DNA of 41,294 nt from a virus: the UHGV virus genome UHGV-0110231. One strand, 5' to 3'. The translations under genes and the position numbers were made by a program. The notes beneath the pieces were generated by a model that ran no database searches, was not told the DNA's origin, and saw only the letters and a list, made by a program, of their open reading frames with translations. Positions 6,000-8,804 of this stretch are shown here, piece after piece (position 1 is the first letter of the stretch; each line of letters begins with the position of its first letter).

Positions 6000-6001
6000 A
6001 T

Positions 6002-6016
6002 GCACCTCATAGGTAA
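6002..6016. promoter_or_regulatory. Operator site 2 (degenerate)
   Basis: GCACCTCATAGGTAA. Confidence 0.4.
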
Positions 6017-6032
6017 CTATCCTTGATTTTTG

Positions 6033-6047
6033 TTACCTTATGGGTGA
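6033..6047. promoter_or_regulatory. Operator site 3, between the putative -35 (TTGATT) and -10 (GAATAT) of a rightward promoter
   Basis: TTACCTTATGGGTGA. Confidence 0.5.
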
Positions 6048-6083
6048 ATATTTATTATCTGAAATAAATATCAGGCAATAGCT

Positions 6084-6314
6084 ATGAGCGATAACGGACA
6101 TTTCGATTTCAAAAAGCACTGGCTTGCACTTACTCCGGATGAGCGTGAAGCCTTCGCACAGGAAGCCGGAACGACGAGTCACTATATCCAGACTCACTTA
6201 ACAGGTAAGCGCAAAATGCCAGGTAAAGTATTGATGAATGGGCTTTTTAAAGCCTGTAAAACAAGACAATGGCTGCGCTCAAAAGCAGAACTGGCATACT
6301 TCTTCTACTCATGA
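6084..6314 (+). CDS. Cro-like HTH regulator
   Basis: 76 aa; first rightward gene after the operators; HTH-like segment EAGTTSHYIQTHLTGKRKMP. Confidence 0.55.
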   Translation: MSDNGHFDFKKHWLALTPDEREAFAQEAGTTSHYIQTHLTGKRKMPGKVLMNGLFKACKTRQWLRSKAELAYFFYS

Positions 6315-6336
6315 TATCCAGCCACAACCCTCTGTA

Positions 6337-6359
6337 GACCGCCATCCGGCGGTCTTTTC
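6337..6359 (+). terminator. Rho-independent terminator after the cro-like gene (tR1-like)
   Basis: Hairpin GACCGCC-atcc-GGCGGTC followed by TTTTC. Confidence 0.6.
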
Positions 6360-6369
6360 ATATCTATTC

Positions 6370-6384
6370 TTACCTCAAAGGTAA
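6370..6384. promoter_or_regulatory. Operator-like palindrome downstream of the terminator
   Basis: TTACCTCAAAGGTAA. Confidence 0.5.
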
Positions 6385-6464
6385 TAAAAAACCAAATCTG
6401 GTTGATCTTTTTTTTGTGTCAGCACAAAATAACCGTAATCCCAATACTAATAACAGGGCTTACC

Positions 6465-6665
6465 ATGGAAATCATTACACGTATTGATGCCGCAAAGCGC
6501 GGACTTAAACGCTACTACACCGGAAAACCATGTAAGCACGGACATGACAGTGAACGCTGGGTTTACAACGGACACTGTGTTGAGTGCACCATGGAATCAA
6601 ACCGTCGCATCAGGGCAGAGATTAAGCAGATCATGATTAATTCCTCCCCACAACACTCAAGCTGA
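6465..6665 (+). CDS. Small Cys/His-rich (zinc-binding?) protein in the cII position
   Basis: 66 aa; motif KPCKHGH...NGHCVEC. Confidence 0.45.
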   Translation: MEIITRIDAAKRGLKRYYTGKPCKHGHDSERWVYNGHCVECTMESNRRIRAEIKQIMINSSPQHSS

Positions 6666-6680
6666 TAGCGGAGATTAATC

Positions 6681-7496
6681 ATGAGCAGACATGCAACAGA
6701 TTGGGCCTGGGAGACAGATCCAGGTAGCTCATCATTAAAGCTCATACTGCTCTCGATGGCTGACAGAGCCGATGAATATAACCTCTGCTACCCCAGCATA
6801 GAACGCCTCGTTAAAGACACTTGCCTGAATAAAAAAACCGTGCAGGCCGGGCTTATATCGCTCATGAAAATGGGGCTTATTTCAGATACCGGAGAGAGAA
6901 AGGGAGCGACAAAAAGAGTGCGGGTTTTCTCTCTTAATATAACCAAAAACGGGAACATTAAAGGCAACCGGGAGGGTGGCAATGAACCCGAAAACGGTAA
7001 TGTTACCGAAAACGGGAATATACCCAAAAACGGGATGTTGAATGATCCCAAAAACGGGATGTTGAATGATCCCAAAAACGGGATCCAGAACCAGTCATAT
7101 AACCAGTCATTTAACCAAGAGAGGGAGAGCAGGACAAAAAACGGGGATTCTGTGCATCATGACCCCGGCGCAAACAACGCCGTGATGAATAACTTTGTTC
7201 CTCCTGGTGGGCCAGGGCAATTAGGCAAATTTGTCATGCATGAACAATGGCAGCCATCAGATGACTTTCTTCGGAAAAGCTCATTGCAGGGGATCTACCT
7301 GGACAGTCTGCCAACGGCACAGGAACTTGCAGAGTTCAGAATTTACTGGATGGCTGAGGGTAAGGCATACCATCAGGCACAGTGGGAGCAGAAGCTGGCA
7401 AGGCGGCTGCAGATTAGCAGACAGAAGCAATCAACATTACCTGATAACAACGTTCCGCACTGGAACAGCCCTGAAGCATGGGAGGATTTCTTGTGA
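6681..7496 (+). CDS. Replication initiator (lambda O-like replisome organiser) with N-terminal winged-helix domain
   Basis: 271 aa; N-terminal HTH; iterons embedded in the coding sequence, as in lambda O. Confidence 0.65.
   Translation: MSRHATDWAWETDPGSSSLKLILLSMADRADEYNLCYPSIERLVKDTCLNKKTVQAGLISLMKMGLISDTGERKGATKRVRVFSLNITKNGNIKGNREGGNEPENGNVTENGNIPKNGMLNDPKNGMLNDPKNGIQNQSYNQSFNQERESRTKNGDSVHHDPGANNAVMNNFVPPGGPGQLGKFVMHEQWQPSDDFLRKSSLQGIYLDSLPTAQELAEFRIYWMAEGKAYHQAQWEQKLARRLQISRQKQSTLPDNNVPHWNSPEAWEDFL
6943..7083. repeat. Putative replication origin iterons (CCAAAAACGGGA, at least 5 copies including two exact 24-bp tandem units)
   Basis: Copies at 6943, 7006, 7024, 7048 and 7072, plus variants at 6988 and 7134; they encode the PKNGMLND peptide repeats. 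Confidence 0.6.
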
Positions 7497-8278
7497 ACAA
7501 CGTTTTTACCGCGATACAAAACCGTGACGGAGAAGCCCTTTCTCGCATGTCAGGTTATGAGCATCAGTACACCAACAATGACAACGTGGTGAACATGTCA
7601 GCAGAGAGGCTTGTTGATGCCCTTTTCAAACAGCTGAAACAACTGTTTCCGGCGGCAGTGGTAACCAACCTGAAGACGCCAGAGCAGGAAGTTGCTGCAA
7701 AACAGCAGTGGATTGCTGCGTTTGCCGAAGGGGGGATCCGAACCCGTGAACAGGTTTCTGCTGGTATGCGCCACGCCCGCGCCAGTGAGTCTCCGTTCTG
7801 GCCGTCGCCAGGGCAATTCATCAAGTGGTGTAAAGACAGCAAGATGGTTCTTGGCGTCACCATTGACGATGTGATGGCGGAGTTTCACCGGTACAGCAAG
7901 GAAAAAAGTTTATATCCTGGTGGTCCCGAAAGATTCCCGTGGCGACATCCGGTTATGTACTGGGTCGTATGTGATACCCGCCGTGCAATGTATCAGCGCC
8001 AGCTTAGCGAGATTGAGGTTGAGAAACACGCGCGCAGGCTGCTCGATGATTGGGCGAAAAAGGTGGCTTCCGGACAGCAGATACCCGATCCGGTGATCAG
8101 CATACAGGCAAAGCCAGAACCCATGAGTACGCCTCCGGACACAGGGAGAGACGTTTACCATCCACCAGGGCGAAGTTTCGGGTGCATGCCTAACGCCGCC
8201 ACCCTTGGGGGAATAACACCGGCGCAGTGGCTGATGGAGGAATACAGGCGGGGAAAGGCGTCAGGATTTATCAAGTAA
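7493..8278 (+). CDS. Replication protein (lambda P-like helicase-loader position)
   Basis: GTG start with GGGAGGA Shine-Dalgarno (alternative ATG at 7478); immediately follows and overlaps the O-like gene. Confidence 0.5.
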   Translation: MNNVFTAIQNRDGEALSRMSGYEHQYTNNDNVVNMSAERLVDALFKQLKQLFPAAVVTNLKTPEQEVAAKQQWIAAFAEGGIRTREQVSAGMRHARASESPFWPSPGQFIKWCKDSKMVLGVTIDDVMAEFHRYSKEKSLYPGGPERFPWRHPVMYWVVCDTRRAMYQRQLSEIEVEKHARRLLDDWAKKVASGQQIPDPVISIQAKPEPMSTPPDTGRDVYHPPGRSFGCMPNAATLGGITPAQWLMEEYRRGKASGFIK

Positions 8279-8315
8279 TACCAGCGCGATAGCGCATTTT
8301 TTTACGTCTCGATAA

Positions 8316-8330
8316 TTACCTTAGAGGTAA
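8316..8330. promoter_or_regulatory. Operator-like palindrome
   Basis: TTACCTTAGAGGTAA. Confidence 0.5.
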
Positions 8331-8377
8331 TAAAATATTCTAAAATCTATTGATTTCGTGTCTTATGTGGTTTTTAA

Positions 8378-8392
8378 TTACCTAAGGGGTAA
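8378..8392. promoter_or_regulatory. Operator-like palindrome, 4 nt before the ATG at 8396
   Basis: TTACCTAAGGGGTAA. Confidence 0.5.
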
Positions 8393-8395
8393 ATC

Positions 8396-8743
8396 ATGAG
8401 AAAACAGATGCAGGCTCTTGGTCGACTCAAAACAGGCCAGATGAACAAAACAGAATCTGCGTATTGCCAGCACCTTGAGCTGCGTAAACGTGCAGGAGAA
8501 ATCGTCTGGTATCGATTTGAGGGTATCAAGCTGCGGTTAGCTGACAACACGTTCTATACGCCAGATTTTGCTGTGATGCTCGCCACCGGCGAGATGGAAC
8601 TGCACGAAGTGAAAGGGGGATTCTGGACCGATGACGCCAGAGTGAAAACCAAAGTCGCCGCAGATCAGTATCCGTTCCGAATCATCGGGGTAACGGTTAA
8701 GCCAAAGAAAGCAGGTGGTGGCTGGAACATCGAAGAGTTCTGA
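8396..8743 (+). CDS. Small PD-(D/E)XK-type nuclease (DUF1064-like; possible Holliday-junction resolvase)
   Basis: 115 aa; YTPDF ... ELHEVKG matches a D...E.K nuclease signature. Confidence 0.45.
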   Translation: MRKQMQALGRLKTGQMNKTESAYCQHLELRKRAGEIVWYRFEGIKLRLADNTFYTPDFAVMLATGEMELHEVKGGFWTDDARVKTKVAADQYPFRIIGVTVKPKKAGGGWNIEEF

Positions 8744-8804
8744 ATCGACGATCTTTTTAGTTATCAATGTAATCAATAAGTTATGTGGATAAGCGAGGGT
8801 AAAG

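Follow-up and report, generated by a model that had tools for sequence, protein, structure and literature searches.

A candidate replication origin inside the initiator gene of a phiV10-like phage, with the arrangement of lambda

What does a cluster of short direct repeats do in the middle of a phage gene? It could be a replication origin, a set of binding sites with some other role, or the trace of a repetitive peptide. The question is raised by a locus in a stretch of viral DNA of 41,294 bp (the window), in which a first-pass annotation had noticed an array of repeats. The window is a phiV10-like temperate phage of E. coli; over its replication region, 6000-8400, it shares 98% identity with Escherichia phage phiV10, one of the epsilon15-like podoviruses of the genus Uetakevirus, and with several related phages and prophages. 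The genes around the array follow the early-right plan of lambdoid phages. A two-HTH repressor, coded on the minus strand, comes first; next are a cro-like gene, a terminator (6336-6355), a small ORF, the initiator gene that holds the array, and a P-like loader gene that overlaps the 3' end of the initiator gene and also matches phrog_109 'P-like helicase loader'. The small ORF (6465-6665, plus strand), between the terminator of the cro-like gene and the initiator, has a match to phrog_1081, of unknown function (E 7.7e-43), and none in Pfam; the lambda gene at that place is cII. The phiV10 record carries no origin annotation, and in the literature on the phiV10 origin, epsilon15 iterons and HTH_36 iterons we found no description of this origin. 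Two records of much larger phages include a phiV10-like replication module with 98% identity, the 138-kb Vequintavirus record of Escherichia phage BP9 (PP488543.1, 133756-137132) and the 115-kb record of PH444 (PP350014.1). These may be chimeric assemblies or host-prophage contamination.

The gene that holds the array has 98% DNA identity to PhiV10p43, annotated as 'replication initiation protein', and its product is a member of the HTH_36-type phage replication initiators (PHROG 1032), with a match to phrog_1032 'replication initiation protein' over aa 1-269 (E 1.4e-108). Pfam identifies two domains, HTH_36 (PF13730) at aa 18-67 with E 1.8e-10 and DnaT (PF17948) at aa 184-252 with E 1.1e-15. 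In the AlphaFold2 model, aa 1-89 form four helices and a beta-hairpin wing with pLDDT 86-98, and the residues from about 90 to 190, coded by the array and its flank, have pLDDT 36-47 and no secondary structure. A fold search of the PDB with the N-terminal domain returns generic winged-helix matches (MarR, Fur, ArsR and one plasmid Rep), none with E <= 0.001, so the fold points to no specific initiator relative. The C-terminal domain matches the solved DnaT structures 9zbt, 6aep and 4ou6 with E values from 7e-21 to 4e-20. The protein as a whole falls below the E. coli DnaT equivalog (NCBIfam NF002770; 85 bits vs a cut-off of 201), with a match confined to aa 181-264. The gene is found in 424 of 5,426 complete E. 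coli genomes, labelled 'DnaT-like ssDNA-binding domain-containing protein' or 'primosomal protein', and the latter name fits one domain, not the whole protein. The first-pass annotation had called the gene O-like, which is fair for its position and its partner but not for its sequence. HTH_36 and DnaT are the only Pfam families found, with no match to Phage_rep_O (PF04492), which lambda O itself matches at 5.7e-36. A BLASTP comparison with lambda O gives a best E of 0.07, in an irrelevant segment and not significant. These two results rule out the initiator as a lambda O homologue at the level of sequence.

The repeat itself is the 12-mer CCAAAAACGGGA, with exact copies at 6943, 7024, 7048 and 7072, a copy with one mismatch at 7006, and copies with two mismatches at 6988 and 7135. 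The count of 'at least five copies' first given for the array thus holds if one mismatch is allowed; the exact copies are only four. All seven matches fall within 204 bp (6943-7146) and, as first described, inside the initiator gene, in a single reading frame of ORF 6681-7496 (+). Outside the array, the 41,294-bp window has no copy at 0-1 mismatch and only three copies with two mismatches, and the observed total of 10 is reached by none of 100 shuffles. Six of the copies follow each other at spacings of 45, 18, 18, 24 and 24 nt. Tandem Repeats Finder reports a 24-bp unit repeated 2.6 times with 100% identity at 7023-7084, in agreement with the exact 24-bp tandem units of the earlier description, and an 18-bp unit repeated 2.8 times at 6986-7035. 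Taken with its flanks, each site becomes a 16-mer with a CCC-N6-GGG dyad, and there are six such sites at 6940-7084 (Table 1), of which iterons 5 and 6 read ATCCC-AAAAAC-GGGAT. We count six iterons and not seven because the copy at 7135-7146 varies among near-identical relatives: amongst 67 of them it reads AAAAACCGGGG in 26, AAAAAACGGGG in 18 and AAAAAGCGGGG in 13. That copy is probably non-functional.

Table 1. Positions in the window of the initiator gene, its domains, the repeats that it holds and the loader gene that follows.
Feature	Coordinates	Strand	Remarks
Replication initiator gene, 271 aa, holds the array	6681..7496	+	Pfam HTH_36 + DnaT; phrog_1032; PhiV10p43
N-terminal winged-helix domain, aa 1-87, presumed iteron-binding	6681..6941	+	AlphaFold2
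Linker-coding segment, about aa 88-183, predicted disordered, holds the array	6942..7229	+	AlphaFold2
Iteron 1, TAACCAAAAACGGGAA	6940..6955		Exact 12-mer core; kept in near-identical relatives
Iteron 2, AACCCGAAAACGGTAA	6985..7000		Weakest, two core mismatches; part of 18-bp tandem unit
Iteron 3, TTACCGAAAACGGGAA	7003..7018		One core mismatch
Iteron 4, TACCCAAAAACGGGAT	7021..7036		Exact core; first unit of 24-bp tandem array
Iteron 5, ATCCCAAAAACGGGAT	7045..7060		Perfect 5-bp inverted arms, 6 nt between
Iteron 6, ATCCCAAAAACGGGAT	7069..7084		Perfect 5-bp inverted arms
12-bp repeat AACCAGTCATAT, 2.4 copies	7089..7117		Tandem Repeats Finder; local AT-richest stretch; candidate DNA-unwinding element
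Doubtful seventh copy, CAAAAAACGGGG	7135..7146		Two mismatches; variable among 67 near-identical relatives
DnaT-like C-terminal domain, aa 184-252	7230..7436	+	Pfam PF17948
Lambda-P-type helicase loader gene	7478..8278	+	Pfam Phage_lambda_P (PF06992), E 1.5e-56

One of the closest known systems is the lambda origin in gene O, whose architecture is summarised in PMC7466680. In lambda, as in the window, dyad-symmetric repeats occupy the middle of the gene, in the part coding for the linker that joins an N-domain that binds DNA to a C-domain that recruits the loader. The repeats are about 18-24 bp apart and are followed by a segment that is more AT-rich, in the window only marginally so, and then by the gene for a P-type loader. 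The lambda iteron ATCCCTCAAAACGAGGGA resembles ATCCCAAAAACGGGAT of the window, with half-sites 3 bp closer in the window (a 14-bp TCCC...GGGA span vs 17 bp in lambda), and in the lambda sequence the iterons are also read in different frames. The number of iterons differs among relatives in the lambda and Stx phages, 4 vs 6 (PMC7466680); the window has six, as do the origins of Stx phages 933W and P27. Unlike lambda O, the window initiator lacks Phage_rep_O and has a DnaT-like C-domain; the AT-rich element is short, weak and made of 12-bp repeats, and the window origin is a prediction from sequence.

Another of the closest systems is the initiator of GF-2, an Edwardsiella phage, which we group with other HTH_36-type prophage initiators (PHROG 1032, 6643 and 391). 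The GF-2 protein ('replication initiation O-like', YP_009126665) has a homologous N-domain, with 57% identity over aa 1-87 and 50% over aa 1-139, and its gene has the same kind of array at the same position, three copies of GATCCCAAAATTGGGAT and one of CACCCAAAAACGGGAT, with the element CAGAAYCAGTCA after the last iteron as in the window. The differences are in the centre of the iteron, AAAATT vs AAAAAC, and in the C-domain, where that of lambda O replaces the DnaT-like one. The GF-2 protein is a natural hybrid: its homology to the window protein spans residues 1-136 and takes in the array, and its residues 137-280 are 62% identical to the C-domain of lambda O (E 2e-67). The GF-2 DNA is colinear with lambda, with the annotated iterons, then the AT-rich region, then the flanking palindrome/shared segment, and the N-domain and array module therefore takes the exact place of the lambda O N-domain and ori. 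To the right of the AT-rich region, GF-2 (1615-1645) and lambda (660-690) have in common the segment CGTC(C/A)GAGAATTCTG(A/G)CGAATCCTC, which is kept although the iterons and the N-domains differ. This segment marks the recombination joint between the origin/N-domain module and the O C-terminal module. The GF-2 record, too, has no origin annotation.

Theta plasmids (RepA, RepE, pi, and the HTH_36 Rep of Paracoccus) resemble the window in that a winged-helix initiator goes with an array of its own binding sites, presumed ones in the window, beside an AT-rich segment, which in the window is weak. Plasmid iterons are usually upstream of the rep gene, often with DnaA boxes. The window array has neither feature of the plasmid type, iterons outside the rep gene or DnaA boxes near them: unlike those origins it is intragenic, no DnaA box lies near it (the nearest exact box is at 8784, and the window shows no enrichment), and the helicase would presumably come by way of the phage P-type loader. 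The lambda origin is not known to need a DnaA box either. In plasmids with HTH_36 Rep proteins, the repeats set specificity (PMC3832669).

The locus has these features of the lambda type: at least four clustered repeats in an initiator gene, dyads, conservation independent of reading frame (described below), and a P-type loader gene next to it. We think it probable that the array serves this phiV10-like phage as its replication origin, placed inside the gene of the initiator that would bind it. The lambda-type arrangement, with iterons inside the initiator gene, had been proposed at the outset, and comparison with the systems above and with the homologues below makes it a well supported reading. 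As an origin, the array is an unannotated but ordinary example of the known lambda design.

An origin of this type should have a place where the duplex opens, and the first-pass annotation had reported an AT-rich stretch after the array. Part of this stands. The 30 bp at 7089-7118 have 33% GC vs 48% for the initiator gene, but in 60-nt windows the GC content over the 12-bp repeat does not fall below that of the array (0.40), and a nearest-neighbour calculation finds nothing unusual in its duplex stability (z = 1.4, with 7.8% of the 30-bp windows of the whole window at least as unstable). The phiV10 genome has three of the 12-bp units vs two in the window. Inspected by eye, the 12-bp repeat does not match the consensus of an IHF site. 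The homologues say more about this flank than the window does. Across the 32 homologous loci in which the position of the last iteron could be fixed, the mean GC content dips by 0.10 (SE about 0.015) relative to the gene average at +25 to +45 nt past the last iteron. In the same 32 loci, the roughly 40 nt after the last iteron include a conserved C(A/G)GAAYC(N5)CA..GAAYC with an 11-12-bp period, which in the window is CAGAACCAGTCATATAACCAGTCATTTAACCA. The element is read in two frames in different homologues, as QNQS../RNLP.. vs PES... The AT dip is convincing only as a family-wide average and is marginal in the window. We propose the 12-bp repeat segment as the best candidate for an unwinding element, of modest AT-richness in this phage.

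This modest AT-richness bears on the first of the alternative explanations, in which the sites are real binding sites of the initiator but serve autoregulation or replication control (titration, handcuffing), and opening takes place elsewhere, for example at 8296-8356 or 6014-6074. Near the module no DNA is less stable than these two intergenic stretches, the former of which comes just after the P-like gene (z = 3.0-3.4 vs 1.4 by the array), and plasmid Rep proteins of the HTH_36 type have their iterons outside the rep gene (PMC3832669). Both stretches, however, carry a TTACC-N5-GGTAA palindrome common to many intergenic sites and resemble promoter/operator regions, and neither they nor any other place outside the gene has a copy of the iteron. 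The GAAYC element and the GC dip lie, family-wide, directly beside the last iteron, and GF-2 is colinear with ori-lambda. We consider it improbable that the sites have a control role only.

The 15-bp palindrome TTACC-N5-GGTAA is found in 13 copies at 0-1 mismatch in the window (at 189, 5211, 5273, 5985, 6033, 6370, 8316, 8378, 11927, 11945, 15072, 32014 and 36802), vs 0.8 expected by chance. Several copies flank the repressor and cro-like genes or sit after the P-like gene. It may be an operator or the site of another regulator.

A second alternative does away with DNA function altogether. In the window, every copy of the repeat is read as (P/T)(K/E)NG in one frame, so the window alone cannot tell a DNA repeat from a peptide repeat, one that would be kept for the protein or merely tolerated in a flexible linker. 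The region is predicted to be disordered, the copy number varies freely among relatives, and all spacings in the window are multiples of 3, although the last is required of any in-frame indel anyway. Against a peptide repeat, the 12-mer core is near-invariant at synonymous positions, with Gly coded as GGG in 6 of 7 copies and Asn as AAC in 7 of 7.

The more telling evidence is in distant homologues. Scanning genome contigs with the N-terminal domain alone, we collected 80 loci at 40-87% identity, of which 72 have full-length genes; the hosts include Enterobacterales, Vibrio, Pseudoalteromonas, Marinomonas, Acinetobacter, Desulfovibrionaceae, Burkholderiaceae and Sphingomonadales. A related 12-mer is present in 4-11 copies (median 5) in 64 of the 72 full-length homologues, many of which are related Acinetobacter prophages, so that the counts are not independent events. 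The copies take the same position in the gene, at about aa 90-160, immediately past the HTH domain. The analyses of frames and dyads that follow relied on an ad hoc script for finding seeds. The copies of a gene are in one reading frame in 10 of the 64 homologues, in two frames in 18 and in three frames in 36. In 54 of the 64, then, the motif is translated into unrelated peptides, and it is therefore the DNA that is conserved and not the peptide. As an example, CCCAAAAACGGG is read as T-Q-K-R in GF-2 and PPompW vs P-K-N-G in the window. The dyad is conserved as well: the homologues score on average 3.38 of 5 arm pairs vs 2.32 for a gene-internal control, and all 65 of 65 loci score above their control. 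The outer bases of the arms change in step, with combinations ATCCC/GGGAT, GTCCC/GGGAC, GTACC/GGTAC and TTCCG/CGGAA. A dyad with co-varying arms is what a selected dimer-binding site would predict, and a peptide repeat leaves it unexplained. Reading the array purely as a peptide repeat is strongly disfavoured, and we give it very little credence.

The same comparison overturns the idea that the iteron sequence is specific to this phage. The core CC(A/G)AAAACGG recurs family-wide: homologous genes of Enterobacterales, Vibrio, Pseudoalteromonas and Acinetobacter have it, as do even those of Sphingomonadales and Burkholderiaceae, and it also resembles the lambda iteron. The idea is right only insofar as the motif follows the N-terminal domain. 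In ZX5/TL-2011b, the cassette that corresponds to 6408-7747 is replaced by an unrelated initiator with GTAAC/GTTAC repeats of its own. The swapped cassette (aligned against vB_EcoP_ZX5 909-2204, with flanks 97-99.5% identical) takes in the small ORF (6465-6665), all of the initiator and about 90 codons from the start of the P-like gene, and the motif CCAAAAACGG is absent from the replacement. The possibility that ZX5 keeps the same C-terminal domain was ruled out, as the whole initiator is swapped and only an 82-bp stretch is 72% identical.

A few other features coincide with the array. Iterons 5 and 6 overlap with three GATC (Dam) sites, at 7044, 7068 and 7082, in a stretch of 40 bp, vs a window average of one per about 283 bp; most relatives have iterons without GATC. 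The cluster may be linked to Dam/SeqA control. On the minus strand there are terminator-like hairpins with T-runs at 7074-7055 and 7050-7031, built from neighbouring iteron half-sites and the A5 tract; their stems are weak, with 6 pairs of which 3 are G-C, and as intrinsic terminators we set them aside as a probable by-product of the iteron sequence. An RNA element was also considered and rejected: the array has no match in Rfam even at E <= 1, and the single-strand fold is only marginally better than that of shuffled sequence (z = -1.98). The least probable reading of all is that the array is a site for some other protein (a host factor, a phage repressor, SeqA/Dam) or a hotspot of recombination or slippage that plays no part in initiation, as the GATC cluster, the highly variable copy number and the hairpins with T-runs might suggest, but the motif accompanies the HTH_36 N-domain across very different hosts and gene contexts, it is gone where that domain is swapped out in ZX5, GATC is missing from the iterons of most relatives, and the Rfam and fold results also count against it.

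Taking the array as an origin, we can describe how it varies amongst close relatives. A scan of viral contigs gave 80 contigs whose N-domains are 99-100% identical; these are near-identical loci only, informative for copy number and not for divergence. In these contigs the number of 24-bp units ranges from one to six and that of 18-bp units from one to four. In the 67 near-identical relatives, the sites at 0-1 mismatch number 3-8 per locus (mode 5), and their 334 copies include only four variants of the 12-mer. The length of the linker differs among relatives by multiples of 6 or 8 codons, and the proteins in databases are 263 to 311 aa long, with eight PKNG sites in the longest. In public records, genes of this initiator family often show a frameshift or a truncation within the array. 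Many proteins recorded as 'partial' (97-160 aa) stop within the repeats, and in YDC107_2 the array contains homopolymer indels. The broken records point to assembly and annotation trouble at the tandem iterons.

As the initiator shows no sequence homology to lambda O, the mechanism we propose for the origin is carried over by analogy. Dimers of the N-domain would bind the dyads and build a nucleoprotein complex similar to the O-some. The complex would strain the adjoining, mildly AT-rich segment with the 12-bp repeats (7089-7124) until it opens. The DnaT-like C-domain would then hold the single-stranded DNA, or recruit the adjacent P-type loader, or both, and the loader would deliver the host DnaB. 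The 18- and 24-bp tandem units would grow and shrink by slippage or unequal recombination, and each gain or loss of a unit would change the number of sites and the length of the linker at once.

We also entertain, as a rather doubtful extension of this proposal, that two further things are both true: that the GAAYC repeat with its 11-12-bp period (7089-7124) is a specific, undescribed second recognition element, and that gain and loss of iteron units is a selected tuning device. Tuning comes to mind because the strength of the origin and the length of the initiator linker would change together. The GAAYC element could, for example, be a single-stranded loading site for the DnaT-like or lambda-O-like C-domain, or for a host factor.

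For phiV10-like phages, the array is a concrete and testable candidate origin. phiV10 serves as a reporter phage for O157 and as an engineering phage, and the candidate matters for building phiV10-derived replicons. Knowing where the array lies also aids the annotation and assembly of genes of the initiator family, which are so often cut or frameshifted there. The array would cleanly illustrate how one piece of DNA can be under two constraints at once, as coding sequence and as a binding site for a protein. More generally, the design of lambda, with an array in the linker-coding part of the initiator gene, would extend to a separate and very widespread family of winged-helix initiators, the HTH_36 family, in which a site of the CCCAAAAACGG type is nearly universal. 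The general interest is modest, and lies in this near-universal iteron core and in a second DNA-level element within a large family of initiators.
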